Source: Octopus vulgaris
Lineage: Eukaryota
Direction: 5' to 3'
DNA length: 64,000 nucleotides
Assembly: GCA_951406725.2 (NCBI GenBank)
Contig: OX597817.1
Span: forward strand, 27,590,001 to 27,654,000
Part shown: positions 8,712 through 63,470 of the stretch, in pieces
How positions within the stretch are numbered: the stretch's first letter is position 1
Layout: each line of letters opens with the position of its first letter
The notes under the pieces: model-generated
Seen by the model: only the letters and a program-made list of their open reading frames with translations
Database searches by the model: none
What the model was told of the DNA's origin: nothing
Position numbers and translations under genes: made by a program

Positions 8712-8743
<32 letters not shown>

Positions 8744-9186: not shown

Positions 9187-9196
9187 ATTATTATTA

Positions 9197-36425: not shown

Positions 36426-36476
36426 CCACACATGATGATTGCTCCGCACGTGTGGCAGTGTGGTAAGAAGCTTACT

Positions 36477-37750
36477 TACTGCGCATGCGTCGGTTTATTC
36501 GCAGTGTTGATTTTTGACGATTCAGACGGAATTATTTGTGCTGCTTGGCAGCGGTTTGTGAGTGGGTGTTATATCAGTAGAAAAAATGTATTCAGATCTC
36601 AGCGAGTATGAGCTGTCCTCAACGGAGGAAGAGCTCGTTAAGGCGGTAAATACAATGGACGAGCATTTGGAAAGAGAAGAGTTTTACTGAGGCTGTAGAG
36701 GTGACGAAAAGGGAGATGGACCTAGCCGAACTGAAGAGCTGAGTAAGATGATACAGAAGGTGGGCAGTGACGTGAAGTTATTACCCCCGTAAAGGGTTAT
36801 GGGAAATATTGAAAAGAAGACCATTACTTACAAGGTGTACTCAGTGGAGAGTAGAAAGGTGGAACAGATGGATACCGAAATATAGAAAAAGCACTGAAAA
36901 AACTTTCGAAGGAAATGACATACATAACGAAAGGATATAGATATGGAATTGTCCAGTTTAGTACAGCGGAGGAGGCAAAGAGGCTGGCGCGTGCAACTGT
37001 AAAAACGGAGGAAGTGGTACTTCTACCCTCGTACCTTGGAAGAAAGACTTCTAAGGTGAGAGTAGAAGGAATACCATCCGATATAGAAGTGGCTTGGGTT
37101 GCGGCACCACCCTCGTTGGTAGTGAGGAGGAGGTGGATGTCCTCCAAGCCACAGAGATGGAGGAAGGAGGATGTAGAGGGAAAGCATTGGAATTCATCGT
37201 ACAAGCGGAGGCGAAGCAGCTGGAAAATTTGGCGGAGACAGTGACGTTGAGAGAAATTGTATTGAGAGTATGGGTAGAGGGCAGAGTTCCGCGAGGCTTT
37301 AAATGTGGCCAAAAAGGCCACTTTAGAGCGCACTGTCCTCTACAGAGAAAAACGACAGAAGAAGCGGTGGTGGAAACGGAGGAGAAAAAGGAAGAAGTAC
37401 AGATAGATGGAAGGAACAAGGAGGATGAATGCACAGTGAGAGAGAATAAAAGGAAAAAGCGGAAGAAGACGAAGAACAGTCAGTGTAATGTGGGACCCCA
37501 GACCAACTCCATCTCACACACGACCACTCAGACCCACCCTCCCCATACAGACACCGAACATAGGAAAAAGAAGAAAGAACAGATACCACAAAATTTACTC
37601 GACCCTCTCCCGGTAAAAAGAAGGTTACGTGTACATGGAGGAGAGAGTGTTGTCACTCAGCGATGGGGAAAACATTAAAGGAAAGACTAAAGAGTACTCA
37701 GGACTCAGAGGTGGCGAGTGGTGTTAGTCAGTGTGGAGTGAGTAACACAC
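36477..37750 (+). mobile_element. L1/Tx1-type ORF1 (gag-like) pseudogene with zinc knuckle
   Basis: ATG at 36586. Frameshifted ORF with RRM-like VQFSTAEEA and KVRVEGIP, then RVWVEGRVPR(G)FKCGQKGHFRAHC (CX2CX4HX4C, first C mutated). No ORF2 downstream. Confidence 0.85.
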
Positions 37751-37849
37751 TTTTCATATTCTCATTTCTGAGTTATCATCCTTGTATCATCTTAATATTT
37801 ATATACACGAGCAGTTGGAAAACCGATTATTGCAGCGATTCCATCTAAG

Positions 37850-37885
37850 AATATCTGAAGGAATATTATTCCGAAATATCATATT
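37850..37885 (+). ncRNA. Minimal hammerhead-like motif with a 2-nt core deletion
   Basis: aatat-CTGAA(GA missing)-GGAAT att ATTCC-GAAATATC-atatt: perfect 5-bp stems I and II, palindromic ATAT stem III, AUC triplet. Confidence 0.6.
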
Positions 37886-37994
37886 GGATTATGGATGACT
37901 AAATTACAACAGGTATATAGTCCATTGTCTGTATTATAGTGCATAGTTATACCATTCAAAACTTTTTATACTTTACATATATACACATATATTT

Positions 37995-38031
<37 letters not shown>

Positions 38032-38119
38032 CAGATATACATACACACATTACACACACACACATTGCCTGTATTATAGTGCATTGTTACACCATTCAAA
38101 ACGTTTTATTCTTTACATA

Positions 38120-38425
38120 TATACACATATATTTACATATATATACACACACACATATATATATACACATATATATATACACACATATATATATATACAC
38201 ACACATATATATATACACACACATATATATATACACACACATATATATATATACACACATATATATATATACACACATATATATATATATACACACATAT
38301 ATATATATATATACACACACACATATATATATACACACACACATATATATATATACATATATATACACATATATAAATGCACACATTACACACACATACA
38401 CACTCACACAAATATATATATATAC
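38120..38425. repeat. Compound TA/CA minisatellite with ~18-bp period
   Basis: Repeated atatatatatacacacac units. Confidence 0.9.
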
Positions 38426-38966
38426 AAATAAAGTTCAACTTTCTAATGTCGTTTCTTCGTTGGAACCAAACTTACTCTTCAAAAAGGAAATCCGTAGAAT
38501 GAATTCGTGATATGCTGCAACGGTGAATTTTATAGATTTTAAATTAACATATTTAAAATTTTCAAAACAATTTCAGAATTTGCATATAGGTAACCCTCAT
38601 TTCATTGTACTTGTTTAGAACAAATTATTTAAATTAATTAAATATCCAGGAAAGCATTCTAATTAGCAAATTAGAGCATTCATATCAAATTATATGAAAT
38701 TTTATGTAATTGTGTTTGTGCGCCCGCCCGCAGATGTGTGTACATTTTCAATAAGGAATCGATAAGAGATATTCAGTGATGGACTCAATACTAATCATAT
38801 AATACTTATATGGTATATGCTTAAATATCCAAATATGTCGTCCGTTTAATAACGCTGTTCTTTTTGAAAAATCAAGCCTATTTCTTAAAGGAGAATAATA
38901 TAATAAGCTAAAAAAATAGAGAGGTAGTTAATAAATTACTTATTAATTAAAACATTGACAAACATC

Positions 38967-39049
38967 CCTTACAGCTGTTTCAGTTCAAAACCTTCAGAAA
39001 ATTAATTAATATAATTAAAAATTATTTGAAAGTCGAATCCCTTCAGAGG
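38967..39049 (-). ncRNA. Hammerhead-like motif with long AT-rich stem II
   Basis: Minus strand cct-CTGAAGG-gattcgactttca...tgaaggttttgaact-GAAAC agct GTA-agg. One core substitution (A9G). Confidence 0.5.
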
Positions 39050-39246
39050 TAGTTTAAGATATACAAAATAGCTGCTCGATCCCTGCTTGTTGAGTAAACT
39101 GTTGCTAACTGTTAATTAAATTGAGTATTAATTGTAATGTTCAACTTTTTTTGTATAGGTAACCAGTATTTTCATAGAATTTTGCTATTCCTGAATGAGG
39201 TTTGTAACCTTTATTTTGTGTGTGTGCATATATATATATATATATA

Positions 39247-39668
39247 GGCGCAGGAGTGGCTGTGTGGTAAGTAGCTTGTTTACCAATCACATGGTCCCGG
39301 GTTCAGTCCCACTGCGTGGCACCTTGGGCAAGTGTCTTCTACTATAGCCCCGGGCCGACCAAAGCCTTGTGAGTGGATTTGGTAGACAGAAACTGAAAGA
39401 AGCCCGTCGTATATATGTATATATATATATATATATATTTATGCGTGTGTGTGTGTTTGTGTGTATGTGTTTGTCCCCCTATCATTGCTTGACAACCGAT
39501 GTTGGTGTGTTTATGTCTCCGTTACTTAGCGGTTCGGCAAAAGAGACCGATAGAACAAGTACTCGGCTTACAAAAGAATAAGTCCAGGGGTCGAGTTGCT
39601 CGTTGTAAGGCGGTGCTCCAGCATGGCCGCAGTCAGATGACTGAAACGAGTAAAAGAGTAAAAGAGTA
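39247..39668 (+). mobile_element. SINE family B, full length
   Basis: ggcgcaggagtggctgtgtggtaag head, ggttcagtccc B-box-like motif, internal microsatellite, (gagtaaaa) tail. Confidence 0.92.
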
Positions 39669-39725
39669 TATATATTCACACACACATACACACACACACA
39701 TAAATATGTATGTGTGTATGTAGGC

Positions 39726-39775
<50 letters not shown>

Positions 39776-40374
39776 TCTATTTCCCCGGAATCAGTAAATC
39801 ACATTAAGTAATTAGATAATAGTATATTAGTGTTTATGTAATTGCTACAATTGTTTTAAAAACGCCGGTGATAATCGATTTAAATATTGGCTAGGGCTTC
39901 TCGCTGTGTACATGCTGAAGATTTTGCCTGCCATTCAAGCGTTCATATACGAAATCACTGAAAAACTTCTCGCATTTGTTCGTTCACATGTATAGTAAAA
40001 CTCAGAAACTAATTGATATTTATGAAATGAATTTGATACAAACCTTGTATTAAAGTATTGTTATACTAACCTACCGCTTCATAAACTTATATTTTTCTCT
40101 TCATTTCTATATTTATTATATCTATTGTATTTTTTTAAAAAATAGATATTTTCACAACGCAAAATGGAAATAAAATGATAAAATTCAGTTCTCTTCATCT
40201 GTTTCTGCTAAGTTTTCATAAAGGTAAAAACTAATTGCTAGTCCAATCGATTCATTTCTCTTTCTCTATATATTTCATATAATTATTAAATAGCAACAAT
40301 AACAGAAATAAAATTGAAAGGGATAACAAGCACAATAACAATGACAGGAAAATTACTACTACAAATAAGAACCC

Positions 40375-40767
40375 TTTCTACTATAAGCACAATGCCTGAA
40401 ATTTGGTGAGAGGAGACGGGTCAATTACATCGACCCCAGTGCGTAACTGGTACCTAATTTATCGACCCCGAAAGAATGAAAGGCAAAGTCGACCGGGGCA
40501 GAATTTGAACTCAAAACATAACGGCAGACGAAATACCTGTTTCTTTACTACCCACAAGAGGCTAAACACAGAGAGGTCAAACAAGAATAGACACACGGAT
40601 TAAGTCGATTATATCGACCCCAGTGCGTAACTAATACTTATTTAATCGACCCCGAAAGGATGAAAGACAAAGTCGACCTCGGCCGAATTTGAACTCAGAA
40701 CGTAACGGCAGACGAAATACGGCTACGCATTTCGCCCGGCGTGCTAACGTTTCGGCCAGCTCGCCAC
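40375..40767 (-). mobile_element. Two adjacent or nested SINE family A copies, one with each tail type
   Basis: 40540-40767 has the Tx1-type tail. 40375-40538 has the gtagaaagg tail. Confidence 0.85.
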
Positions 40768-41039
40768 TTTAATTATAATACACGTAGCAGTGTTACCGAT
40801 TGTGCTTGCGCACTGGATGGATGGCTCGAGAAGTTTAGAATTGCTACGAGATCGCGGCTGTTTCAGATCAATAGCCTTGTTATGAACAGCAAGCATTCTA
40901 AGGAATGTGTCAGAAAGTTAAAAGAAAGATTCAAAGAAGCTTTGTCTATTTGGTAGGGCTTGAGCCTTTTAACATAGTGTCGATATAACATCTGTCATAG
41001 TGAAAGCGTCAATTAAAATAATAATAATAATAATGATGA

Positions 41040-41245
41040 TGATTTGAAATTTTGGTACAAGCACAACACGTTCGGGGAAGGAGTTATCCGATTACATTGA
41101 CCCCAGTGCTTGACCGGCACTTATTCTATCAATCACGAAAGACGAAGTCGACCTCGGATGGATTCGAACTCAGTTCTTATAGATATAAGAAACAGTACTA
41201 AGCATTTTCACCGGCGCTTTAACGATTCTGCTAGCACGCCAACTT
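41040..41245 (-). mobile_element. SINE family A, diverged
   Basis: Reverse-complement family A core next to (AAT)n. Confidence 0.75.
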
Positions 41246-41367
41246 AATACGACAAATATAGGCTAGCTGTCGAAATATCGTTCAGCCAATAAAACATCGA
41301 CTGCAATTGTATCGCGCTCTTCGCATTGTCTATTTACCCTGTGAAGTGTTACGTCAATCTTCTTAAA

Positions 41368-41413
<46 letters not shown>

Positions 41414-41414
<1 letters not shown>

Positions 41415-41727
41415 GTGCCCTGGGAATGATAGCAAAAGGGGCTGATTGCTACCTAACTCAGATACCTAACTCGGAAACCGCAAAATGGCAGAAATTCAAA
41501 AGATAATGCTCATGGGAACTGCTCATATCCTACGCAAAATACATTCTATGTAATCTTAAGGTTTAAAACAAATATTTTTTTTAGACATCCACTAGTACAA
41601 CACAAAAAACAACCAAATATATGGCACACTAGGCATAACAACAACGTGAACGTCCAACCTGTTGTCTCTTGAGGTCTCTGGGTGAGATTTGAAGCCAACT
41701 TGTACAAATATAAAGCAAAAGTCAAAC

Positions 41728-41729
<2 letters not shown>
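41414..41729 (+). mobile_element. R4/Dong-clade LINE 3' end inserted in (TAA)n
   Basis: ALGMIAKG...MAEIQKIMLMGTAHILRKIHSM* (stop 41551-41553) resembles the R4/Dong C-terminus. (TAA)n at 41370-41413 and 41730-41800. Confidence 0.85.
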
Positions 41730-41787
<58 letters not shown>

Positions 41788-41799
41788 TAATAATAATAA

Positions 41800-41968
41800 T
41801 CCTTTCTACTAAAGACACAAAGCCAGGAATTTGAAGGAAGGGGACTAGTAAATTACATCGACGCCAGTGTTTCACTGGTACTTAATTTATTGACCCAGAA
41901 AAGATGAAAGGCAAAGTCGACCCCGACGGAATTTGAACTCATAACACGAAGACGGACGAATTGCCGAT
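41800..41968 (-). mobile_element. SINE family A ending in the (TAA)n tract
   Basis: Reverse-complement core plus gtagaaaggattatt tail. Confidence 0.85.
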
Positions 41969-42582
41969 AAATATCAATGAACAGAAAGTAGCACTGCAAA
42001 ATAATGACACTCCCCGAAGCAGTACAGCTGCCTGGGAAGACGCCGGTCAGTAGATTGATTCCTGACAGTTACATCAACTAGCTTGCCCTACACAGAACGT
42101 TTCCGGTTAGTTTTGGGTATCCTCTCGTATTTTCTTGTAAGCTTTTCCTCATCAACGTCGTTGTTTCAACTACTCCTTTGTACGTATGCGCTCACGTGTA
42201 GTTATATAAGAGTACGTGTATATGTTAGTCGCATGTAGTTGTATAAGATTATGTGTATATGTTACTCGGACGTGCACTTTCCTTTCTAAATACCAAAATA
42301 TACTCTAACTAGAAAGATTCCAGACTGAATTACATTAATTGACATTTTACATTCTGATTTCTCTTTTAGAAGAGCTGTGGGAAACATCAATTAATTTGTT
42401 GTAAATAATACATCGATGCAAGGAAGGAAATACATAAAAATTATAAAGAAATAAACAAATGAATTTCTAAAATAACACAAACACTTATAATTTACCCGAA
42501 GGTACTTTTCTTTCAGTTATTTTATATTCTCTTTGTTCTCTAAGGTTATAATCAATTTGGAATTAATATCGTTATTATATAA

Positions 42583-44150
42583 CTAACAGCTACCGGGCGT
42601 TTTCTGGGTGCCAACAATTTTCATTTTCTTAACGAGAGTTATTTTGTATATGCATGTACTTTAATTTTCATGCAGAACATTTGAATGTTTCTTTTGACTT
42701 TCTAAGATGTATCCGTTTCTGTTGCAAAATTTACGGTTAATTTTAATTTCGTAGCTGTAGAAAAAATACTATCTATATTTTATTCTAATTCTAAAGTTAT
42801 ATCCAACACATAAATTAGAATTAATTTCAACAGAATTTAATCTTTGCTTAGTTGGGGCTCTTGGAATTGATAACACTTCACTGTTCTACGATTTGGTGTC
42901 CTAGCGAAAGTAATGATCATATGCAAGGGCACGTGAGCATGCAATATTGAGTGGACCTTGAAAGAAGCATAGATCTAAAGGTTCAGCTACGGCACATATG
43001 ATTTCAGTCTTTTTGAAACTGTTGTTTCAGTCCGCATTATCTAACAAACTCATTCCTTAACAAAAAAACATTCGGTATTTTTCACTAATGTGTATTTATA
43101 GACATGTTGAGTAACATGCTTTCGATCCTCGAATGTGGGAGCAAACTCGAACAAAAAATTTGAGTTGCTGACATATACAGTGTGGCATGATGCAATACAT
43201 CCCTGGATCTGATGATAGGTTGCTTAAGTTGGATTACCCTTTCTTTTTTGGCGGGCTGTTAATGAATTTTCTTTCCTCATTTTCTAATTAGCCATTTCGC
43301 ATTAAAGACGATCTCATATGAAGCTATCTTATTTTCACAACACGAAGAAAGCAATTATTTTTAGCTTAAGTGGATAGCGAGAGCGCTGCGATGTGCCATT
43401 TTCTGCGAAATAAACTTTGTCACTATTCTCGAAATTCATCTGCAGATGCAAATTATATGGTAGAATTACTTTGCCCCCAATACAATACATTTCTGTAGAT
43501 TTAACATACCTATTTCTTAACTACCCACAAGGGGCTAAACACAGAGAGGACAAACAAGGACAGACAAACGAATTAAGTCGATTATTTCGACCCCAGTGCG
43601 TAACTGGTACTTATTTAATCGACCCCAAAAGGATGAAAAGCAAAGTCGACCTCGGCGGAATTTGAACTCAGAACGTAACGGCAGACGAAATACGGCTACG
43701 CATTTTGCTCGGTGTGCTAACGTTTCTGCCAGCTCGCCTGTAGATTTAACATACCATTTAGCTTCACAATGTTAGCAGATGACTGACATTTCTTCTCTCT
43801 GAGCTGAAGATCTTTATTAGAATTGGTGGATTTGTCATACTGAAACACTGTAAGTTTATTGTTTGCTATTTGTTTGCTCAGACTGCAGTCAGCTTTGTCT
43901 GATGAAAATCAGTCATGTTTCTTTCAGGCAGACTTACAAAATTTCCACAAAATTTCAAGATAAATACCTTTGCTCGTTGTTGACTGCATGGATGTCTCTG
44001 CTGCTCACAGTTTTGCAAGCCTGTTTCGCTAGTTTTCAAGTCGAGTTTCTGTCTCTTTTAAAGACTTTGCGTCTTCATTTATAGCGATTTTTCTGGTTTG
44101 TGCGTTTTCATTTGCAGGATGTTTTTCCCTAGGCCCTATTAAAAAAGACG
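42583..44150 (-). mobile_element. Internally deleted, degenerate Helitron (RepHel remnants)
   Basis: Minus strand carries STPR-like ETETRLEN*RNRLAKL*AAET, then FQYD and MSVIC*HCEAKW...EMYCIGGKVILP, then helicase-end QLKFFVRVC and CFFQGPLNIACSR. 3' hairpin plus TTAG|T at 42583. 5' limit uncertain. Confidence 0.75.
43511..43737 (-). mobile_element. SINE family A with Tx1-type tail, nested in the Helitron
   Basis: 18-bp TSD ctgtagatttaacatacc at 43493-43510 and 43738-43755. Confidence 0.92.
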
Positions 44151-44999
44151 TCACCGTTTGCCAAAATTGGTGAAAAAAAAAAACGATTATCTATTTTCAT
44201 TAAAGCAAAAACTTATACCCGAAAATGGTTACATTGAAGATTAAAAATTTTGATAATTTGAGACTGTTTAAAAATTAAATGAAGCATTGGCTAATAAATA
44301 TTTACATGATAATTGCTGCTAAAGACTGAATTGTAATACTGACAGCCTCTGTTACGTAGTTAACTGAGAAAGTTTAATGGAAATTTGTATATGGATTAAA
44401 AGTTATGTCCTTAATTAGGCGAATTCCGTTACGGCAGCCTTGATCCGGCTTACATTTGTTTATATGTACATCCAAACCAATTCTCGTTAGTTTGACTGAG
44501 AACCTACGTAAGACGAATTTTAGACACTTGAATAAAAAATAACTGGTTTTGCATATGCAATTTATCAGAAATATTTCCATAGACCTGATGATAGAGCGTA
44601 AGTTCCTACAAAAAAATTATTTTGTAGATTTCATTTCAAAGAAATCGATTTGGCGAGAGGAAGGAAGTAGATTGTGATAAAAAAATATATTGGTTTAGCG
44701 ATGCCGCGATGTAATGAAGGTCGTGTAAGTGCAGGCAATATTTTTTTTATTAAATACAGGCAATATTTTAATTAAACAAGTTTCCAAAGGTCTAGATTGT
44801 AATTATCCGTATTTATCAGTTCGGCTACTGTAATTAAGAGTTCGATAATTTTGTCATGCTTGTTTCACAATATAACGATTTCTGATACGATGGTCGTGTC
44901 ACATGCATGTGGAAATTTAAAACGACGGGAAACTAAAAGAGTTTATTAGTTACAACTTAGTTTGTTTGCATATTGTTTTACTTCCTACGGCGAATTTTA

Positions 45000-45520
45000 C
45001 TAGCAGTTCAATAGAACAACTTGCTCGCGAAATTAACATGCGAGCACTTCACAAATATGCGGTCCGGTAATATAGTTCTGAAGGAGATTCAGCATGATAC
45101 AGTACGCTACAAAGCTGGATTCCGAATTATAGGTATGACACATTTTTGCCTGCTGAGTGGACTGGAAGAACGTGATATAAAATATATTGCTTACTGCTCA
45201 TCATCATCAGCGGCGAGCTGGCAGAAACGTTATAGCACACCGGGCGAAATGCGTAGCTGTATTTCGTCTGCCGTTACGTTCTGAGTTCAAATTCCGCCGA
45301 GGTCGACTTTGCTTTTCATCATTTCGGGGTAGATTAGATAAGTACCAGTTGCGCTCTGGGGTCGATGTAATCGACTTAATTCGTTTGTCTGTCCTTGTTT
45401 GTCCTCTCTGTATTTGGCCCCTTGTGGGTAGTAAAGAAATTGATATAAAGTATATTGCTTAAGAAAACACTATGCTACCATGATTCGAACAGCTAACAAC
45501 CACTACGCCACGCGTCTTTA
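45000..45520 (-). mobile_element. Old SINE (family C core with 7927-type tail), interrupted by a family A insertion
   Basis: gctcgcgaaattaacatgc and gagattcagcatgatacag match the reverse complement of 8160-8250. gagtggactggaagaacgtg matches family C. Confidence 0.65.
45210..45440 (+). mobile_element. SINE family A with Tx1-type tail
   Basis: 21-bp TSD tgatataaa(a/g)tatattgctta at 45173-45193 and 45441-45461. Confidence 0.9.
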
Positions 45521-45588
45521 CACATTACAGAATACTTATGACATAATTATAGGTATTATTCCATTCTTATTTCTGGTTTGTTTTAATA

Positions 45589-45823
45589 CAGGTGTGACCC
45601 AAAAGTAGGTTTACAGTTATACAACTATCTCTTTCGCATTCATATATTAACAGTTTATATCTTAATTATAAAAAAAATATGAAAACATTACTCTATGCTA
45701 ATTTAGTTAATTTTGTCAGGCTCCCATTTTAGTTTGTAAGATAGAAATTTAAATGTAATAAATGTAATAAAAAAATTTAAAGCACCTACTTGATATCTGT
45801 AAACCTACTTTTGGGCCACCCTG
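45589..45823. mobile_element. Tc1/mariner MITE
   Basis: TIRs caggtgtgacccaaaagtaggtttacag and ctgtaaacctacttttgggccaccctg, with TA on both sides. Confidence 0.9.
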
Positions 45824-46298
45824 TATTCTACGGAAGATAACGAGTCTATTAGATATCAGACAGCCTGTTCAGATAATAGTTATAATAGTGTTTCATATTA
45901 TATTGCAGCCTTGTTCACCTACTTCTTCTATGTGATGGACGGCAATTCAGTATACTTTACTATAAAGTGGTGCAACAACATGCTACCAGTTCACGAAGTA
46001 ATATAATTGCATGACATAGCATTTGTAAATTCTCAACATTATATTTGAATAAAAAAATTTTTATTTAGAAAATGGTTGTTCCACAACTAATATATATATA
46101 TACAGGTATGCGGCATAATTCTTTCGGCGTTGACTAAAACTAACTGCACTACCTAGAGTTGTTTTCGTCTAGTTTTGTCTTCTTACAATTCTTCAGCAGG
46201 CGATGAAGTGTGTTAAATTCATCTCGACATCTTTCTCAAGAAGTCCTTCCATACCTTAAGGTGAAGGTAAGCAAGTTGTCCAGCACTTTATCTGCCAA

Positions 46299-46670
46299 CT
46301 AGCAGTATCGCCCGGCGTTGCTCAGGTTTGTAAGGGAAATAACTATAAAGCATTTTTAGAGAGTTATAGCCAAAAAATGGAAAAAAATGATGGTAAATTT
46401 TTTTTGAGAGTAAAAAAAGGTGGAGTTGCGTCCCCTAGACGGTCTGTGGTTTGGGTTTCTGATTCTCGACCCCATGTCGAATTTATCGATTTTTTCAGAA
46501 CTGGGGGAACTTTTCAAAATTTTCGCTGCGTTAGTTTTGAATTATGACATTGGGCTATGTGTGTGTCAAGTTTCATCAGAATCGGTTGAAAGCCGTGGTC
46601 AGGGTGAGGGTACAAGCAAACAGACACACAGAAACACGCACAGACAAACTGCCGTTTATATAGAGAGAGA
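46299..46670 (-). mobile_element. Non-autonomous Helitron
   Basis: A|TC start, hairpin plus CTAG|T end. About 100 bp at the 3' end shared with 24718-25014. Confidence 0.85.
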
Positions 46671-47823: not shown

Positions 47824-48094
47824 GGTACTTGTATCACAGAGTGGTCCCGGTTTGCGCACACGCGCAGAGGCGCGTCCGTGCTAGCCGGAGGTACAGTCGA
47901 TCCTACGAGCTGACTGGCGCATGCACGATATATACGATATATACTTGTATCGATATATACGTGCGATACAAGTATATATCGTATATATCGTGCATGCGCC
48001 AGTCAGCTCGTAGGATCGACTGGCTACGTCTGGCTAGCGCGGACGCGCGTCTGCGTGTGTGCGTAAACCGGGACCACTTTGCGATACAAGTACC
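47824..48094. mobile_element. Foldback MITE with Merlin-like termini
   Basis: About 130-bp arms starting GGTAC and ending GTACC. Candidate 9-bp TSD tacccattc/tatacattc (7 of 9 match). Confidence 0.75.
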
Positions 48095-48380
48095 TATACA
48101 TTCTTGATTGTAGACTGTAATGTACCGTGAACATTTCTCTTTGAAATATATTTGGCTTAATCCATATGAATAAGACTGCGTACATCTAAACTAAATGTGA
48201 TTAGGACTGTAGGACACTACACCACCTCCCCTTACTTTATAAAATATAAAGATTTCTTCTTCAAACTTCTTTTGAAAATTTATTTTAGTTTATTCCCCGA
48301 TATTTATTTAATATGATAAACGAAAGATGATTGGCATATATATCTTTACAGATTGTATTTAAATACTTTGTTTTTTCTAG

Positions 48381-49258
48381 ACAGCACGAACCTTTCGAAA
48401 TTATCTCTGATTCGAAACTGAATCCGAAACCTGAAAAAGTACCATCATACATATATAGAGAGGATATGAAGGCAATAGTAATCGAAGACAAAAATTACAA
48501 GAGACTGAAAGAAATGTGTGGAGATAATATTGACCCACCAGGAGTAAACGTGGAATTCAAAGAATTGCCACCAGTAATGGATTTAGTAGAAATTGAACCA
48601 CTAATGAAATACTACTAAAAAGTAAATAAGTATGTTAAATTGACAGGGAAAAAAAAGAGAAGACAAAGTGTTTTATGTTATGTTTAAAAATATTGAAAAA
48701 TGGAACAATTTTAGAGAACGTATATAACGTTGGGCAAGTGTCTTCTACTATAGCCTCGGGCCGACCAAAGCCTTGTGAGTGGATTTGGTAGATGGAAACT
48801 GAAAGAAGCCCGTCGTATATATGTATATATATATGTTTGTGTGTCTGTGTTTGTCCCCCCCCCCCCCCAACAGCGCTTGTCAACTGATGCTGGTGTGTTT
48901 ACGTCACTGTAACTTAGCGGTTCGGCAAAAGAGACCGATAGAATAAGTACTAGGCTTACAAAGAATAAGTCCTGGGGGTCGATTTCTTCAGTCAAATGAC
49001 TGAAACAAGTAAAAGATTAACGGTTCAAATAATTGTAATAGTACACGATAATTAATTATGTAGATACATGATAAAAACGGACAGTTTAAAAAGATTAATG
49101 GTAATGCATGTGATGAGGGGTGCATGCAGCCATTCATAACCCCACTGTTATATAAATCACCTCAATCATATTCGTTCTATGTATTGTCCACTCTGTGGTG
49201 ACCTGTCTGTCCTTGTTTGTCCCCCTCTATTTCGGGCCCTTGTGGCTAATAAAAAAAT
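48381..49258 (+). mobile_element. 3' part of an ORF1-only retroelement (ORF C-terminus, UTR and tail), interrupted by a SINE
   Basis: ORF ends YIYREDMKAIVI...DPPGVNVEFKELP..EPLMKYY* at 48618. Tail ctgtctgtccttgtttgtccccctctatttcgggcccttgtggctaataaaaaaa. Confidence 0.75.
48731..49018 (+). mobile_element. SINE family B, truncated
   Basis: Matches the 39247 copy from tgggcaagtgtc onward. Confidence 0.9.
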
Positions 49259-49586
49259 CAGAATTTGAAACCTGGAGTAACTTTGTCTTCTAAAATGACG
49301 AGCATAGAATTAAATATGCTTGAAATACTAAATAAAACGTTAATATTGCAGTTGGAATATTTAATAGGTAATGAATTTAAGGCTAATGCTTTCATATAAA
49401 ACTCGAACATGTAATGCATAATACATTTAACAATAAAACGAGAGCAGTCTAGAGAACGAAACTATTTCATGCAGAAAAGTGTATATCATTTTCACCTACC
49501 ATCTTCAAAGTAAATAGGGTATTTATCGTACAGAGTTGACGTCTAATACATCAATAGATTGATAATGGAATATGTTAAATTGTGTA

Positions 49587-50934: not shown

Positions 50935-51153
50935 GATAATCCTTTCTACTATAGGCTCAAGGCCTGGAATTAGTGAGGAGGGGGATAGTTGATCATATCG
51001 ACCCCAGTATTAGACTGGTACTTAATTTATAGACCCTGAAATGATGAAAGGTAAAGTCGAACCCCGCGGAATTTGAACTCAGAGCGTGGCAACGGGCGGA
51101 ATACCGCTAATCATTTTGTCCAGCGTGTTAACTATTCAGCCAGCCCGCCGCCT
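50935..51153 (-). mobile_element. SINE family A
   Basis: Reverse-complement core and gtagaaaggattat tail, flanked by the duplication tgtgctttatgat. Confidence 0.88.
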
Positions 51154-51599
51154 AAATGTGCTTTATGATCATGCATAGCATTACCAATATCTTTCTCGGG
51201 ATAAATGTTTTTTTTCATATTTGAAATATCTTTTCTAAACATCTCTTACTATACCCTGAATGTTAAATTCATTCGTGGGTCTAAATTATATATTTGTAAA
51301 TACCATTTTCACACCACTGATAGAGATATTACTAGGTATATCCACTGAAGATAAGTAAAACGCTTAATGAACAATTCAAACGTGTTTTCACCGCCCCCAC
51401 TTAAGGCACATGCAAGTCAGCAAATCTGTAGATTTTGTTATTATTTTTACAGATGTATAATGAGCGGCAGTAACAGTTGACATCAAACTAGATGTGATAC
51501 TGGTCATAGATGAGGCAGACCCAAACTCAGCAGCTGACTCCGATGCAAATCATGCAAACGAGCTCATGCAAAAACCTCTGCAGCTTCTTTTTCAGAGCT

Positions 51600-53147: not shown

Positions 53148-53319
53148 GTGTGAGTGTATGTGTGCGTGTGTCTGTTTGTTTTTCCACATATATTCATCAT
53201 ATATTATATTTACTAGGTTACATTTTACTTTTCTTTATCATTCTATTTTATTCCTTCTTTTTGAACTTTTAATATTTTTTTTAACGGGGCCAATATTTTC
53301 CAATTCTCAAGGCACCGAC

Positions 53320-53695
53320 TAGCTGGGAAAATCGTTAGCACGCCGGGCGGAATGCTTAACGGCATTTCACCTGTCTTCGTGTTCTGAGTTCAATTTCCGC
53401 CGGGGTCGACTTTGCCTTTCATCCTTTCGGGGTCGATAAATGAAGTACCAGTGAAACACTGGGGTCGATGTAATCGACTAGTCCCCTCCCTCAAAATGTC
53501 ATGGTCTTGTGCCATCAGTAGAAAAGAAAATGCTTAGAGGCATTTTCTCCATCTTCACGCTCTGCGTTCACATTTCGTAGTGGTCGACTTTGCTTTTCAT
53601 CCATTCGGAGTCGATAAAACATGTACAAGTTAAGCAGTGAGGTCGACTTAATCCATTTCCCAATATTACTGGCCTTGTGTCAGAATTTGAAACCT
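53320..53695 (+). mobile_element. Two tandem SINE family A copies
   Basis: Cores at about 53320-53525 and 53530-53695. Confidence 0.82.
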
Positions 53696-56049
53696 TTAGC
53701 TTCCACCCCTTTCCTTCTTTTATACCGGATCTTTCTCCTATTTTCCTTCATTCATTCCATCTTCTTCCTTTTCTATCTTTAATACATTTCATCATTTCCA
53801 TCTCCGTTTTTTTCTTTCACTTGTAGTCATGATTTTTTATTCAATTTTTCTTTCTTCTTATTCATTGATGATTTTTTTCTTTTGTATGAATTATTTTATT
53901 CCTTCCTTTTAAATGTTAGTACTTTCTCTCTTGTTCTAGCACACTTTTTTAAAAATAAATTTTATGAATAATAATATGAAAAGAAAACAAACATTTGCAT
54001 TTATTTAATTATTTCAAACATAGATTCCCTTCCTGACCCATGTCTTTCAACCGTCCTTGGTCAACCAAACATATGCATTGAAATAGCTGCAATCGTTTAC
54101 TTTACTAACGTCTTCTGGTATCAATTCATGTATTACGCAGCAGTCTGCCACAGACCAAACTTTTGCAATAACATTAAGTTATTCTGTTTTTAATTGCATA
54201 CACACAACATCAGTTCTGCCTCTTTAGCTTTTCCCCTCTTAACATAATAAAAAAGAAAACAAATGTTAATAAAATAAGCAACGGAAACAAAGAAATATTT
54301 CAAAGGATCAAAGTATATTTTGCTTGAGTGGATTCACCAAGGAAGTTGCAATGAATATATTTGCAATTTCTTCGTTTCACTTTAATAGAGCTTATGAAAA
54401 TTGCTTTTTATCGGAATATTTTTTTTTAGAATTTCCACCTTTGTCTCGTTTCTCACTACGCTTTGCCCCCACACACACAAACACACATATATATTGTTGA
54501 GGATATTTTAAATTCTCTATTATTAGGCATTATTGTTAAATTAGAGGGAAATTTAATTACACATTGACTCATTATCACATTGGTGATCAATAACATCAGA
54601 ACTATAGTTAACCTTCCCACACTCACAGATACAAACTAATCGCCATTATCTGCTGTATTGCAAGAACAATATAAATCTTCCCTGGGCTATCGTTTATTCC
54701 ATAATATATATTACCTGCATTTAATAATTAAGATTGTTTTATTAATATCAACATTAATATTGTTAATTTCATTTTCTCATCTCTCACTTCCACTTATTCT
54801 TTATGTCCATCTCTTCATATTATACTTTTCTTTTCATCTTTTTATTATTTTCTTTTCTTATGCTTCGTCTAATTTTCGTCTGACATTTCGTCTGACATCT
54901 ACTTCTATTTTCTGCTCTTCTTTTTCTTCTTCTCCTTCCAGTTTATTGTCATCGTCCTCACCTTCTCTTCTTCATAATCTTCTTCCCTTTTGAACTTAAT
55001 GTTAATATTGTTATTGACGATTTATCTATTTGAAATAATCATTATTGTTTTGTTAAAAATAACATTAGCGTTATCATGATGATTTTACATTTCCTTCATC
55101 ATCTTCTGTTTCTAACCACTTAGTTCCAGACGTGACCCTGTGTGGAAACGAACATTGCTTCGCAAATAACAATTTGACTTCTGTAATTCAACTGCATAAT
55201 ACAATGGGTGAGACATTTTCTACCACAGCCACTTGTTAACAAAAGCCTTGCAAATTAAATTTGAAAGACCAAAGTAGTGTAGAAAGCCATCGGATGAACC
55301 GCCTCTTTTGGAGTTGAACTTAATTCTGGTTCATAGGTGCTTACAATCGAATTCAAACTGTCACAAACAAAACGCATTTTGAAAAGATGAAGTTTAAGTA
55401 TTCATAATCTGTCACTGGTTGAGAGGAATACAATTTAAGAAACATAAGTTCTCCTACTGTTTATGAATGTTTAAATCCAAGATTATTTTTCTTAATGTAT
55501 ACCCTTATGCTATTTTGTGGTTTAATCCACAGGTTAGCTGTAATCAAAAGCATTGCACCTGTGTGATCCCTACCTTTTAAAAGTATCTAAATCGTCATTA
55601 TCTAATATTTCCTTTCCGTAATTAAATCGCTAGTGTGAGATTGGTGAAAGATTTGGATAGATTGAAAACATGCTCACCCCACTAGTAGCTTCTTGCTGTA
55701 TCTAAACTAAATGAATAAGCTTAGCAGAAATGAAGCTTGATAAAGAAATACATTGGTAGAAATTAGTTTTAAATACGTAATTTTTCCATTATTACTACTG
55801 TTGGTCACAGTGACAGCCGAACGATATACAGCATTAATTATGGAAATTGAGTGTCATTGTCCAAATTTCATGTCTTTCGTCACTAGTAATAACTGAAGGT
55901 TTTGCTCATCACGGGAATATTGTTTGTTTGTGTTTACACCTTAAGCGCGCTTAAAGTACAAGCAGCGAAAATTCGTAGTCATTTACTTGTGAAACCGAAG
56001 AGATATCAATACCAGGTGAATCGCAATCTATCACAATACTTCACTGGTA

Positions 56050-56420
56050 GTTTGTTTTGCTTACTGCAATAAAAAGTGAGATCAAATGATTTCGAAGAGA
56101 CTGAAACTCGGTGCATGAATGGCCGCAAGTTAAAACTGTTTTGTTGAACAATAAATACTCGAGTTTCCAGATGTATATCACCGCATATTTGTCTCACCTT
56201 CATTCTAGCGAGTATTGATTTAACTTTTTCAGCCTCTCCCAATATTTGACGTGTCGCATTGAGACGATCTTCTCCGTGTAGCTTCGCTAGATTGCTTCGA
56301 GTTCCACCGTTAATTCAACACGGTGATGACCATATTTACGAGCAATAGTCTGAACGGTTGAAGGCTAATCAAGTATTATTCAGCACACCACACTCGCATC
56401 TTCCATTCGTACCTATAACT
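56050..56420 (-). mobile_element. Second, inverted fragment of the 51600 LINE family
   Basis: Minus strand ELEAI*RSYTEKIVSMRHVKYWERLKKLNQYSLE*R*DKYAVIYIWK. Nucleotide match to 52615-52750. Confidence 0.82.
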
Positions 56421-58429
56421 AAATATACGTATGTAGGTATGAATCTGGAAGTTGTATTTTTTTACGAAAGCACAGTGCCTGCTTTCTTATTTCGTTTGTT
56501 TACCACAAAGTTCTATTCCTATATTATATCATTTTCTTGTCAATGTTGATCTTTTCTATACACATTTTCTTCCCTTGCACTAAACCGTTGCCGACACACT
56601 TCTACCAACACCAATAATGACTATGAGAATGCTCCACCAAACACACTCCTTCTTTTCGTGAGATCACCTCATATATCCTCAATTTATATTAAGAATATTT
56701 TTGACAGTCATATTATGTTGTGGCATATTCTTAAACTGATTTACTGCTTGCCATTCGTTATTTTCCGAAAAGCTGGCAAAAGATATGTTTGTAATTTTAT
56801 TACATTTATTTCATCTTTTACATTTTCTGTCTCATTTTACTTACGCATTCACTTTTCTTCCGTATATTTCTTTTCACTCTGAATTTTTGCTCTCTTTTTT
56901 TTTTATATTCATACTTTTTGCCGTTTTTCAACAGTTTATCTTGATAATTTTTTTTTTGTATTTTTCTCTTCTCATACAAGTTTATACACCTTTTTCTTTC
57001 CCTTCACTTCTTATCTCTTCCATGCTGTTTCGTTTTGCTCTTCGTTTCATAGTTATCTTTCTTCTTGTATCTTTCCCCAGTTTTTGTCCCTCTTCCGTTT
57101 GTTTTTGTGAGACTATTATCATCTTTTACTTCCTTTCCTTCTCATATCTCTTTACCTCTGATTCTCATTTGCTTTTCTTCTACTTTCACTTTCTTATTCC
57201 TTTGCTTTCTTATTTTATTCATTTAACTCTCCATTTTGTTTTTCTTAATTTTCTTTGTTATTTTCCTTTCATTCCTTCACTTCTTTCATCGTTGATTCCT
57301 GTTTGTCTATGTCTGAGTTTGAGTTAAGTTTGCAAGGTTTCTGTTATTATTGCTGCCGTCAAATAAATTAAGTGGTTTATTTCGATTACATTGATTTCTT
57401 TTATTCGTCCCTTCCCACCACCGTCATCTTAATCTCTGTTATTGATCCGTTGCTTTAGACCATCACCTCATTCGCTTTATAGTCAAATCCTCATTGTTTA
57501 TGATATTTTTTCTCTGCTAGGAAATTATCCATTTTCTGCCAGTTTTACGTTTAAACTGTTATGTTCTACGCGTTTAATGGGAATTTTATTGCCATTGCTT
57601 GTTTTTGCAAGGAATCCAGTTGTCGTTGTAGATGTTGCAGTTCATACTGTGATTGTTGGTGCAAATGTAACTATGTGTATTTTTCTGATCGTTGTAATTT
57701 TTAATGTTTCTTCCTTTTGTTATATTTGTGCTAATAGTTGTGTTTCCACACGTATAAGACGTGAAGAATATTATTGCGGATGGTTTTAATTCTCTTGTAA
57801 TAATTATTACCTAAATTTTAATTGACGAAGTCATTCCGATGAGTTTTTCTTTTTCCTATGATTTTTGAATACACGCTTTCTTTATAGTTCTTGTTATTAG
57901 TGTCATCTCATTTTTCAACTATTTCATACGAAATTTTACTGCCTCAGAGGCCGAAAATCCGTGTTGCTAAGGTTTCTAGCTTATTGTCTGTGGGAGGCGT
58001 AGAATAATTTTTTATGCTAAAATTATCTCACTTTGTTCAGCTGTGATTTTGTTTTGCGTGGGCTTTTTGAATTGTGCTACATGTTTTCCTTCATGGCGTC
58101 GTTTGCCTTGTGTATGCATTGTGTGGGTGTTTGTTTTGGTCTTCCTTTCTTGTGTGGGTGTATATCTCGGCTCTTTTTATGTTATTGACAGTTAATTGTC
58201 TAGTGTATGCATTCTTTAAAGAATTAGTACTATGTTTTTATGTTAGTTGTTGATTGTTTTGTCTATTTAATTGGAAAGTAATTATCAAAACTATGTGATA
58301 TCCAAGATATATTATTGGATGGTGAATCAATAGATTTGGGTTATTTTAGTGTGTCGGGGTCGAATAAAGTATACATTTGAGAAGAACATACAGTTTCAGA
58401 AGATCTATTGAAATGAAAATATTTTGCGT

Positions 58430-59700
58430 AAACTGTGGAAAGTGCTTACTATAGTTTTTGAGGGGAATGTATATATAAGTGTATGTAGATTTGTGAATCC
58501 TACAATATATTTGTTTCTCATAATTCCAGTTGTACTACGCTTATTTTTTACTTAACGCATCCCACTTAATTCTCATATCACAAGAGTAGTACTTTGAACG
58601 ACATCTTTCCGTGTAATATTTTACCAAAAAGAGAACGCGATGTCTATCAGAGTATTAAGATTTTATTTGATGTCTATAATATCTATAAGGGATCGCATGC
58701 CTTTATTATATTATCAATCTTTACTGCCATGTGGCGTATGATTGTGCGTAGATTGTATTCGAGTACGCTTTTTGGTAAATGTTCATACCACTTAGTAGTT
58801 TCAATATCGAAATGTTGACATACCACCCTGTATACATAGATGCCGACACGATGGTGCTTGCAACCGTACTCTGGCAAGAGGAGGGCAAATGCATGAAAAA
58901 TAACACGAGCAATTGTTTTATTGTAAGGATTGTGTAAATCTACATTTGGCGTTAGTTTCTCATATATATTATTTTTATATTTATTAGTGTTTAGTCACTG
59001 ATCCCAAGATATAAAGATTAAACGAGCATTCTTTGTTTTCATTGCTGGTTGTTTTTCTTTTTCTCTGGAGTCTTGACAGATTTGGAATATAGAAAGTTTC
59101 TGCTCTTCATTTTTTTTAATATAGAGATAATTTCAGTTTTAATTATGTCATTTATGTTTTATTTTTAAACTGCTCTGTTCTTTTATTCTGAAATTTTTTA
59201 TTCATTATGGATATCTTTTAATTTGTACTTTATCGTTTCCTTATATTTGAATAACCTATTTATCTTCGTCCTCCCTTATGGCTCTAATCACTTTCTCTTT
59301 GATTGCACTTACGTATCATTCTCGTCTCATTGCGCTTACTTTAGAGTAGTGTTCTGATGTGCTACTTTCCGGCAGTGCTCTTTATGTTAGGATTAGCAGA
59401 GTGACTTCGGAACAGTGCTAAATTTTATCTCTAAATTAAACGTCTTACACTGAAGATGCAATATCTTGTATTTCGGTATTGCTTTCAGGTTATAAATGTA
59501 GCCTAACTCTTCTGTATAACTCTTTTCTAATGTACTCACATTTTCATTTAAACCAAAGTATTTGCAGAAGTGCTTATATCTAATTCTCTTCTTTTGTTCG
59601 AAATTTCAGTCAGTTTGTCTCTTCTTCATCATTTGGTGAGTCTCATGTGCATTTTGATATTGGAACAACACACGCCTGTTTAATATGCGTATCTAAATCG
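58430..59700 (-). mobile_element. Degenerate R4/Dong-like LINE (CCHC and restriction-like endonuclease region)
   Basis: HHRVGIYVYRVVCQHFDIETTKWYEHLPKSVLEY...IDNIIKA...LIDIA resembles RHD.V...HW..C....KWYEH.P..V.EN of R4/Dong. Limits approximate. Confidence 0.7.
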
Positions 59701-59811
59701 GAGAATGAAATCTGGAGGTGGGTACTTGCCTTGGGTTTCCATAGTAAATCTGATTCAGTAGGGTTCTTTTACTTCCCTTTTTAGAGGGCATTATTATTAT
59801 TAGAAAGAGGA

Positions 59812-60028
59812 AGGTGGTGAGCTGGCGGAATCGCTAGCACGCCAAGCAAAATGTTTAGCGGCATTTTGTATACCATTACGTTCTGTGTTCAGATTCCACG
59901 GAGGTCGGCATCGGATTTCATCTTTTCCAGGTCGATAAAAATAAGTACCAGTTGAACACTGGAGTCGATGTAATCGACTCACCCCATTCCCCCGAATTTG
60001 CTGGCCTTGTACCAAAATTTGAAATCAT
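59812..60028 (+). mobile_element. SINE family A
   Basis: Core plus tail gctggccttgtaccaaaatttgaaatc. Confidence 0.85.
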
Positions 60029-62424
60029 TGTTATTTGAAAGAAGAGGAATTCAATGCAACTATTGCAAAACCTACAAAAATATTATTGGATGATAAATGT
60101 TACACGTCATTTTCTGTTTCTTTCAAGATATTTTTCTATTCTTATTTCTTCTTTTCCTTCTTTCATTTATGATATTGAGTCATTAAATGATAGAAATTAG
60201 CAACTTAGTATCATGTAGCAAATACATAACACCAATCACAATTTTTGGTGTGGCAGGGAATTTATTAGCCTATTTCATCTCTTATTTTGTGCGCTTTCCT
60301 TCCTACTGGTTATAAGGGGGCGAATGATAATGAGATAAACGGTGATGGTGATCGTTATGATAATGATAATGGTGATATATCGACGAATGGAAATCATTAA
60401 ACATGTTCAATATGTTCAACAATATTATAATTTGATGATAATTAATCAATATATATTGGCGCGTGGTTAAAAATTGATTATGCATGAACTGCAAAAATAT
60501 CCAATTTCTGCAGTTTACAACATTAGCCATACATTATTGGGATATTAAGAAATAGCAACCAAACCGCTATAATATAATCAAAATAATATTAATATTAATA
60601 TAATGTTAATATAATTTTTCCGCAAATAGATTCTAAGATAAAAGAAAGTATACTTATTGCATGATGAAATATTAGATGTAAAATATAACATGCTACCGGG
60701 CAACCGAACAAAAATGGAAGAATAGAAAGGCAGACAAGAAAAAAAAATTGAGTTGGCCTTGTATAGTGGCAAGTATTAAAATGCAACAAATGAAATGGGC
60801 ATTAATTCATGGAGAGTGATAAATAGTTTCATTCTTTAGATTTAGGCTAGTATTTAATAATTAGAAATTTACTGTATTCATTACCTTATTCCATGTTGCA
60901 TTAATAGCGCACGGGATACATTTCCAACAGAGAATCGAAGTTAATTCAGCAACTTCGTCCGGTGAGTACTTAACACTACAATGCATTCATTATTGGGGAT
61001 TAACGGCAGGTTTAAGTGCTATCTATATGCAATTACCTCCATTTCTCCATTATTCGAACATGTTCATTTAATTTCAGATCAATGAATGAATATACGAAAT
61101 AACTTGAATGGAATGTCAAGACATAGAATAAACTTCGAACCAAAAGAATAACAACGTGTCCGATCATTCATTGTTACTGATTATTCAAATACAACCTCTC
61201 GTGTACTTACGTAGAGGTACTAACAGACACGCGCGACAAACGGTAATGTGTGTGTGTGTGTATGTGTGTGTGTGAGAGGGAGAAAGAGGGAGATAGATAG
61301 ATATAAAGTATTATATATGTATGCATATATGCTTAGATATTTTGTGTGTATATATATTACTCTTTCACAGAATAAACCATACAATTTAATACATACCGCA
61401 ATTGCATGAAGTCATCTGAATACATGTATAAATTCTTAATTTAGAAAATGCGACAGGTATTACAAACTCGCTCACTTAGGAGTATTGAAACATGCGACAT
61501 TAAAAAAATCCTATGGAGCAAATGTGCATATATGCGTGCATTACTTTTACTTATTTAGTGCAAACGAAAAATAAAATCCCGGGAATGATATATATATTCG
61601 AATCTGATTTTCAAAGAAAGACGAAAGAACGAAGACCTGGCCGTGTACTTAAAAATGCTCAGAACGCAACTGTGTTTGTACATCAATGTGAATGTGTTAT
61701 CAAACAAGTAGTTTGTAAATCAATAATATAAATATGTGCCCAATATGTTATTGCAAGTTTTAACCTATTTATTGTAAGCCGTAAGTCTCAATAAGCGTTA
61801 TTGAAAAATAGTACGTTATTACGGGACATGTCTACATAATTGCTGAAAAATCTCTTCTCATGAAGCAAGAAATTTCATGCTACATCATGTGATTTTAAAC
61901 ACCTCAAATGATATAGACAAAGAATATTATCATTTCCTTAGTACTGATATTTGAAAATATTATAAACAAACTAGACAAAGAAAATATATTTGAAACGTGA
62001 AAATATTTCGCACTTAAAATTATTTAGCACAGAAAATATACTAAAATAGACAGCAACAATCATTAAAGTATCGAGTCTGGTATACCTATATGCTTCTGTT
62101 AACGTATGAGTGACAAAACTGATGTTTCATATTTTCTTATTCAGCCTTAAACAATTTTAGAATTTTTATTATACCCAATCAGACATGTTTCACGTATGAG
62201 TTATTTTGTGACTAACATCGTTATCAGAAACATACGTTTTTTTCATTCGGTATCATAATGTATGTTTATACATATTTCGAAATGCACGAGCATCTCCTGT
62301 TTTCACGTCACATATTTATCCAATATAAGTGTATAATAAGCATTTCATAAGGTCGTCTTCTTCATTGACTTCTAATTTTTATTTCAAATTAAACATTTTT
62401 TTTTTTACTTCTATAAGCTTATTT

Positions 62425-62530
62425 GCGATGGACCGGTGCCCCGTTCAGGTGAAGATCATATACGCCAATGAAACCGGAAAACCGGCCTTTATGAGCCAGG
62501 CATGGCTCGAGAAGGAATAGAACAACAAAC
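62425..62530 (+). mobile_element. SINE family C-related 3' fragment
   Basis: gcgatggaccgg...gaaaccggaaaaccggcc is similar to 30335-30410. agcttatt duplicated at the flanks. Confidence 0.65.
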
Positions 62531-62789
62531 GAGCTTATTAACTGAAAGAGAGGTTTCCGTTCACTTTATCAATTTCCCTATGATTATGATGTGAAGATCA
62601 TTTTTTTATGTTAGCCTTAGACACGGCTCTGATAATGTAATAAGTCAGAATTAAATTGTCACTTGACAGTCACATGCTTGTCAAAAAACGTTCACATATA
62701 TTGCTCATTGTGTTTGAACTAATACGGTTAACTAACGCAGTCCAACTAACATCACCCGTCAAATACTGTTTCTTTGATTTGGAAAACAT

Positions 62790-63470
62790 GCCATGACACA
62801 GCGGGGACAGCACAAGGACAGACAGAACACCACAGTGGGAACAAAAAAAAACCATAAACCGAACGAAGGAAGGATGAATAAAATTAGTGGTGATGAAATG
62901 GCTGCAGTAACATTTAAATGTTTTAAAACAGTTTTTAATCATTTTCCTTTGTCTTTTTTCCTTTTAGCATCTAATAAATTGTAATATCTTACTTTTTAGA
63001 AGTTCATGAATGGTTCTGAATCTGTGTACGCCACAGCAAGCGGTAATTCATCAAACTCCACCTCTACTCCTAATGGGTCTGTGTCGTTTCCTAACAAATC
63101 CCTCAGTTTTCCGTACCGCTCTCGGTCTATCACAATTTCTTTTACATTTTCTGTATACAGCTCTACTGCTAATCTTACCCTTATTACTGCCAAACCTTCT
63201 AAGGCCTCCACCTCGGCCTGTACACTGAGGCCCAGTGTCTAACCCTTCCACATCAACCCCTTCGTCTCTGTGGCCTGGAGAACGGCCACCTCCTCCATAA
63301 TCTTCTGGGATGGTGTGGTCCTCTTAACCATATCATCCATAATCTACTGCGGCGGTGACAACTCCACGCCACCACCCACTCCACATTCCATCCTCTGACA
63401 TTCCTCCATGTTTGATATGTCCATCTCCATCCTTAAAACCTTTGCTGCCTCCGCAACACTCCACCAAACA
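62790..63470 (-). mobile_element. Internally deleted ORF1-only retroelement
   Basis: EEVAVLQATE...VQAEVEALEGLA matches the 37094 ORF and runs in frame into a C-terminus homologous to 48381-48618. Then about 200 nt of UTR and the ctgtctgtccttgtgctgtcccc tail. Confidence 0.8.

Follow-up and report, generated by a model that had tools for sequence, protein, structure and literature searches.

ORF1-only derivatives of L1/Tx1-type LINEs in Octopus vulgaris: selection on ORF1 and insertion sites spaced from TATA boxes

Introduction

Can a long interspersed nuclear element (LINE) that carries the first open reading frame (ORF1) and lacks the second (ORF2) persist as a lineage of its own, and where does it insert? 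The question is raised by a stretch of 64,000 nt on contig OX597817.1 of Octopus vulgaris (the window; all coordinates below are positions in it), in which three ORF1-like fragments lie near 36, 48 and 63 kb. ORF1-only LINE derivatives have been described mainly from mammals, as HAL1. In our analysis the three fragments were identified as decayed copies of ORF1-only (HAL1-like) derivatives of L1/Tx1-type LINEs, and their ORF1-only status was solid. The target-site pattern, which was missed by the original prediction made for this DNA, is a more unusual feature than the ORF1-only status, as many insertions lie at a similar distance below TATA boxes.

Results

A census of 296 ORF1-homologous units was compiled from loci L001-L222 and the window after seven duplicate loci were dropped; the loci were hand-picked from the top search matches and were biased to long open frames, and a few units were split or overlapping, so that not all of them are independent. 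As the original prediction had proposed, ORF2 never followed the ORF1 stop: it was found behind none of the 229 units of classes A-E in this census, and the shared 3' tail closed 162 of these units within 1.1 kb; in another 60 it was not detected, and the remaining 7 lay at a locus edge. The units measured about 1.4-2.2 kb and consisted of a 5' untranslated region (UTR), one ORF, a short 3' UTR and the shared tail, with target-site duplications of 11-30 nt; full units with strong duplications were mostly 1.4-1.6 kb in lineage A and 1.7-2.2 kb in B/C/E. The family had amplified as lineages of its own, with target-site duplications and 5' truncations, and it was abundant (at least 150 matches per query in four own-genome searches with ORF1-only queries, and 824 to 9,422 candidates). 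An ORF inside a giant long terminal repeat (LTR) was also considered and was ruled out by the long duplications and the empty targets: the units ended at the tail with duplications of 11-30 nt and not at TG...CA with 4-6 bp, and the LTR-like sequence was the target, which exists empty.

A FastTree phylogeny was built on the core of RNA-recognition motifs (RRMs) and zinc knuckle, for which 184 of the 296 units were long enough; its deep nodes were weak. ORF1-only clades were found for A+D (support 1.0) and B/C/E (0.93), together with two smaller ones, and none of them held an ORF2-bearing member. The idea of one old, diversified ORF1-only family therefore needs amending: the units were ORF1-only, abundant and spread in age, but they fell into at least four deep lineages, and the C-terminal domain (CTD) belonged to one of these. 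Some A copies differed by just ~1-2%, and lineage A has therefore moved recently. One lineage-A unit was thinly covered by contigs of three presumed-RNA runs and one run of uncertain kind, a coverage that speaks neither to the start nor to the level of transcription.

Selection on ORF1 was evaluated by the ratio of nonsynonymous to synonymous substitution (dN/dS), estimated pairwise by NG86 and binned by total distance, with the limits that the pairs are not independent of one another and that dS is saturated at depth. At moderate depth, dN/dS fell to 0.13-0.25 in the B/C/E core (84 copies) and to 0.18-0.26 in the CTD (99 copies), and it was 0.22-0.30 in the A core (40 copies), with 0.42 in the most diverged A bin. 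The closest bins gave 0.36-0.50, and the closest copies 0.4-0.8. In lineage A, dN/dS was 0.95 for singletons and 0.27 for shared changes, as expected if the parents are under selection and their copies neutral; the singleton values of 2.0-2.8 for B/C/E were a method artefact and were left unused. ORF1 evolved under purifying selection after the loss of ORF2, and the past selection that had been suggested for the CTD was borne out by its low ratios between distant copies.

The insertion sites of classes B, C, D, E, X and Y were analyzed in 82 units with both ends, of which 32 passed a filter (duplication score of at least 9, plausible distance, not low-complexity, not tandem) that was set after the first junctions had been viewed. 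These 32 copies, mainly from the lineage with the CTD and joined by some autonomous relatives, fell into 25 target groups without shared sequence. In 13 of the 32 copies and 11 of the 25 target groups the word TATAWA began between 20 and 38 nt ahead of the duplication, in most cases at -29 to -32; this window of -38 to -20 was set after the first loci had been viewed. Compared to the 11 groups observed, a null drawn from other upstream windows had a mean of 2.0 and a maximum of 7 in 20,000 draws. Fourteen windows of the same width at -320 to -55 contained 0-5 matches each, and a shuffle null gave a mean of 1.0 and a maximum of 6. The reverse strand carried TATAWA in 4/32, and the spacing signal is one of sense orientation. 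The held-out loci L163-L222, fetched after the idea had been noted, showed the same pattern (7/16 with TATA; null mean 1.16, maximum 5), and with duplications of score 12 or more (null rate 1.5%) TATAWA was present in 11/19. The spacing was found both in ORF1-only copies with strong duplications (7/12) and in autonomous copies (4/8). TATA-spaced targeting was statistically strong in these tests. We do not propose the simpler rule that a CTD means a TATA target, as D and F copies without the CTD (L044, L231, L233) were TATA-spaced as well.

Close relatives were found on different targets (L177 vs L182; L149 vs L163), and L102 was located in antisense within another copy, at 26 nt below a word resembling TATA. 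Where the L149 target was empty, the sequence that is duplicated on insertion was present a single time, immediately below the TATA box. Within one target the duplication length varied (13, 15 and 25 nt), which indicates that the insertions there were independent. Some targets were LTRs, and a site resembling a primer-binding site (PBS) lay downstream of the target in 3/32 copies; in L037 and L211 we take the sequence after this site to be gag-like. Three targets were searched genome-wide, with at least 40, 17 and 11 matches. The best relatives of the L214 target led, at the corresponding position, into a further ORF1 family, and judging by what we presume to be a mariner-like end (L236, L237) this target could be a promoter that belongs to a DNA transposon. 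Beside these, the 3' flanks of L091, L168, L172 and L020 formed a recurrent TATA-less target of ORF1-only and autonomous copies, with no match in Rfam. Another ORF1 family lay head-to-head with L177.

Differently, lineage A used a single site in a short interspersed element (SINE), as seen in 17 of the 18 copies that were non-tandem and had a scored duplication (35 candidates). The site lies just after what we take to be an A-box-like motif of a tRNA-derived SINE.

Partners of the kind that had been proposed, L1/Tx1-type LINEs with a homologous ORF1 and shared 3' tails, were present in the genome. These autonomous elements encoded, besides ORF1, an APE-RT-zf ORF2 of 1,130-1,145 aa (zf-RVT in Pfam), and they were common, many of them with an open ORF2. 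The closest solved relative of this ORF2 was human L1 ORF2p (E 4e-67), with R2 at E 4e-25; among the 120 listed homologues of the partner reverse transcriptase (RT) no named Tx1 reference appeared. The label Tx1-type is our assumption from the type of ORF1, together with the observed target specificity. The tail of L175, a member of the 1,132-aa family, closely resembled the B tail as well as the 3' end of an abundant SINE, copies of which lie in the window (e.g. 3510-3550, 45399-45439 and others); since this SINE shares the tail, it is probably mobilised by the same group of LINEs. Head-to-tail arrays in which ORF1-only units were mixed with autonomous ones were found in L058, L066 and L077, and in 17 of 98 5'-complete ORF1-only units another tail lay just upstream. 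Similar tails, shared targets and mixed arrays are indirect hints that the ORF2 of the partners may mobilise these units in trans.

Several further families were noted during this work. Young autonomous families occupied (TC)n and (ATT)n microsatellites (L131-L136, L144-L147), in parallel to Kibi and Koshi. Another young autonomous family with a 1,140-aa ORF2 (L137-L142) had as its target a repeat with a hammerhead-like motif, and a TAAATAA word lay ~29 nt upstream of the duplication; Rfam gave 0 matches in 16 loci, L137 included. A further ORF1 family (F, L230-L234) had its tail ~1.46-1.5 kb after the start in three copies and resembled the L137 family in that tail; 16-nt duplications below a TATATA word were seen in L231 and L233.

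The architecture of the protein was displayed by one natural copy, L020, in which RRM-RRM-knuckle-linker-CTD lay in one frame of 471 open codons, the first ~35 of which seemed out of frame relative to its relatives. An AlphaFold model of the L020 ORF1 (mean pLDDT 66.8) matched tandem-RRM proteins in Foldseek (best E 7e-5). The CCHC knuckle after the RRMs reached E 0.0016 with zf-CCHC in Pfam, just below threshold, and was followed by a charged linker and the CTD of ~90 residues. The CTD had been called unrecognised, and it remained so, as Pfam, ESM Atlas, Foldseek and VIA searches gave no named family. In Pfam, P0001 matched no CTD family and no L1 ORF1 family, and returned just the sub-threshold zf-CCHC and one unrelated weak match; ESM Atlas gave no usable match to the CTD. 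The predicted structure of the CTD (pLDDT 82.6) had no Foldseek match at E<=0.001, and its VIA matches (best Z 6.1, root-mean-square deviation 3.5, 78 residues aligned) were scattered over ferredoxin-like folds. A ferredoxin-like fold without a family match is accordingly a prediction from models, and one guess would be a degenerate third RRM. Compared with the C-termini of autonomous ORF1s, the CTD gave an hhalign probability of 1.2% (E 0.043), and the best autonomous score with the CTD profile was ~5 bits. Two class X units that matched the CTD profile were misclassified ORF1-only copies.

All named homologues of the ORF were of octopod origin, four being labelled Octopus bimaculoides, and 8 of 10 further representatives were from Octopus or Argonauta. 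P0003, P0009 and others were public octopus gene models made from these elements, some of them chimeric or misleadingly named, and some octopus 'CCHC-type' gene models are thus copies of the elements described here.

The copies in the window were delimited as follows.

36447..36476 (+), 5' piece of a tRNA-derived SINE, the lineage-A target, with the same junction as in the 17/18 A copies with a scored duplication
36462-36476 (+), left copy of the usual A target duplication, by sequence
36477..37800 (+), lineage-A ORF1-only unit, 3'-truncated and without the tail; from 36586 a decayed ORF that contains two RRMs but no CTD
~37295-37336 (+), degenerate knuckle of the lineage-A unit
48418..48433 (+), left target-site duplication of the B copy (13/16 nt match 49259-49274)
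48434..49258 (+), lineage-B unit, 5'-truncated: last ~60 CTD codons (48436-48618), 3' UTR and tail
~48730-49021 (+, approximate ends), SINE in the 3' UTR of the B copy, matching four other SINE copies in the window
49259..49274 (+), right target-site duplication of the B copy
63188..63460 (-), A-like 5' pieces by sequence homology: N-terminus and a portion of RRM2; internally deleted and interrupted by a stop
62770..63187 (-), CTD of the C/E lineage (stop at 62996), 3' UTR and tail; 75-79% nucleotide identity to L152-L161, and a tail match
62724..62769 (-), 3' flank common to several relatives (similar in L034, L153 and L159), a repeated target

The original prediction had let the three fragments tile one protein. 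All three exist and are homologous to one ORF1 family, but they represent two lineages. The 36-kb copy has the usual lineage-A SINE junction and matched other A copies at 80-85% nucleotide identity across ~1.35 kb; it ends near 37800, where the shared 3' tail is absent. The predicted RRM-like region corresponds to two RRMs, but the zinc knuckle is degenerate, with Gly for the first Cys. This copy had been thought to share its protein with the CTD copies, and it does not: it belongs to the separate lineage A, in which the CTD profile reached 15 bits in 0/49 units. The in-frame continuation reported at 63 kb was likewise not confirmed, as the copy contains an in-frame TAG and lacks RRM1 and the knuckle. 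The continuity is a mere junction, at ~63187 in a deleted chimera, because A-like pieces (74% nucleotide match to 37126-37211) are joined there to a CTD and tail of the C/E lineage; the nucleotide matches of L154-L161 run on into the 62724..62769 flank. In the peptide quoted from 48 kb, CTD homology holds from 48436, but the first residues, KLNPKP, were read from the left target-site duplication. The distance of ~200-350 nt given between stop and shared tail agreed with our measurements, ~226 nt in the 63-kb copy and ~350 nt in the 48-kb copy, the latter after subtracting the ~290-nt SINE within its UTR.

Other features were observed in the window. A near-perfect palindrome of ~270 nt, resembling a miniature inverted-repeat transposable element (MITE) or a foldback element, lies at 47826-48095, just upstream of the B copy. 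The 3' tail of the family also occurs at 12309-12371 (-) and 34939-34999 (-) with no adjoining ORF1 match. The segments 5638-6375 (-), 19295-19957 (+), 20990-21556 (-) and 58683-58994 (-) are presumably ORF2 fragments of other LINE types.

Discussion

On balance we consider it probable, though not strongly so, that ORF1-only copies use a Tx1-type endonuclease and RT in trans, and that the branch with the CTD often inserts ~30 nt below TATA boxes in unrelated repeats by being positioned at the assembled RNA polymerase II (Pol II) promoter. Transcription would then start at the insertion site. On the template strand, the first nick would lie near +1, marked by the 3' junction if standard target-primed reverse transcription applies, and the second 11-30 nt downstream of it. 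A unit placed in sense directly below a promoter would be transcribed from the captured promoter, the own ORF1 of an ORF1-only unit would package its RNA, and the partner ORF2 would recognise the tail; re-insertion into the duplicated target could build arrays. Lineage A may work alike but via one SINE sequence. Positioning by the promoter complex was favoured over a choice by sequence or by RNA flanks because close relatives use unrelated targets and because L102 lies antisense below a TATA-like word.

Several observations weigh against placement at Pol II start sites. The three targets that were searched genome-wide all turned out to be repeats, so that the case covers repeats and not host-gene promoters. 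The strict TATAWA was absent in 19/32 copies (14/32 with a relaxed motif that was chosen after seeing the data), and the exceptions include L163, L165 (the duplication covers the TATA itself), L168 and L091; some of the selected copies without TATA may be false duplications or may lie at TATA-less promoters. Only 32 of the 82 candidates passed the duplication filter, and its cut at score 9 has a null rate of 13%. Finally, 43 of 97 B/C/E copies carried AGT no more than 10 nt from the 3' junction (control mean 13), an enrichment which fits both a positional and a sequence reading.

The site could instead be chosen by sequence, through a loosely defined endonuclease motif (Inr-like AGT) within promoter DNA that is open, through target sequence at the ends of read-through transcripts, or both, and the TATA spacing would then reflect the way promoters are built and the better transcription of parents that happened to be well placed. 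We regard this as a serious explanation, if an unlikely one. It would account for the AGT at the 3' junctions, for the recurrence of some targets within sub-lineages, and for the sister Tx1-type families of this genome at (TC)n, (ATT)n and a SINE site. The accessible text of a paper on Tx1-clade LINEs also states that the endonuclease is the main determinant of the target, and that targeting can gain in strength when element and target are transcribed together (PMC4494074). However, the 25 target groups among 32 copies had no common sequence, close relatives sat on different targets, and TATAWA stood at a near-fixed distance in 11/19 of the strong duplications.

It is far less likely that a few insertions in LTRs were multiplied as passengers of LTR retrotransposons and inflated the TATA signal. 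Several targets were indeed LTRs followed by a PBS-like site (3/32), with presumed gag-like sequence in L037 and L211, but the signal persisted with one copy per target group (11/25), 5' junctions and duplication lengths differed within a target, identical junctions were not seen in the largest group, and many empty targets exist. Finally, it is hardly credible that the copies in the window arose from full LINEs by chance deletion or that the CTD came from ORF2 or a host gene: one-off deletions of autonomous families do occur (L180 and L181 keep ORF2 remnants) and public gene sets annotate some copies as proteins, but ORF2 stood behind 0/229 A-E units, the ORF1-only clades had no autonomous member among the 184 tree units, and the CTD was in frame with the RRMs and the knuckle in L020.

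Positioning by the promoter complex may have a wider reach, which we put forward only tentatively. A Tx1-type lineage and its ORF1-only parasites might find Pol II start sites by position, via TBP or the pre-initiation complex and possibly with the CTD of ORF1, insert in sense at +1, and so capture and disable the promoters of other transposons; the known Tx1 families that target transposable elements would perhaps be special cases. If this is true, insertion at a constant spacing below TATA boxes that are otherwise unrelated would correspond, for Pol II, to the Pol III targeting of TRE5-A. It would also explain the transcription of elements without an evident promoter and a possible suppression of LTR elements, and the insertions would mark start sites in octopus repeats. 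Since selection on ORF1 was maintained in several deep lineages of a molluscan genome, the reason why a non-autonomous element keeps ORF1 becomes testable.

A literature search of titles and abstract starts, with Repbase and subscription journals outside its range, turned up no earlier account of ORF1-only Tx1 elements in octopus, nor one of LINE insertion at a set spacing from TATA. HeT-A of Drosophila is a Gag/ORF1-only non-LTR element of the Jockey type, telomeric and arranged in head-to-tail arrays, with RT-bearing partners. The octopus elements resemble it in being ORF1-only and in having arrays and RT partners, and differ in being dispersed and of L1/Tx1 type. HAL1 of mammals is described, in the accessible part of the source, as non-autonomous and ORF1-only with several independent origins (PMC5753468). 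The octopus elements are likewise non-autonomous derivatives encoding only ORF1, but their ORF1 consists of two predicted RRMs and a CCHC knuckle, their 3' tail is conserved, their insertion is targeted, and their partners are target-specific Tx1-type LINEs. They are not members of mammalian HAL1 proper, as no L1 ORF1 family was found in Pfam and the named homologues were octopod.

Target-specific LINEs of the Tx1 clade (Tx1, Keno, Kibi, Koshi, Tx1-Mar, Tx1-8_Crp, Tx1-4_AMi, Tx1-9_AMi) prefer microsatellites, DNA transposons or LTR elements according to the accessible text (PMC4494074), and the (TC)n-targeting relatives in the octopus genome are like them. That text describes one sequence or repeat group per family and gives no fixed TATA distance, whereas the octopus lineage has many unrelated targets at a similar distance from TATA. 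Dictyostelium TRE5-A, as far as the accessible portion of its report goes, is placed by position at the promoter complex, its ORF1 binds TBP in vitro, and its non-autonomous derivative TRE5-A.2 moves in trans (PMC5391098). TRE5-A inserts ~50 bp upstream of Pol III genes, whereas the octopus elements lie downstream of TATA boxes, likely those of Pol II promoters, and in sense orientation.

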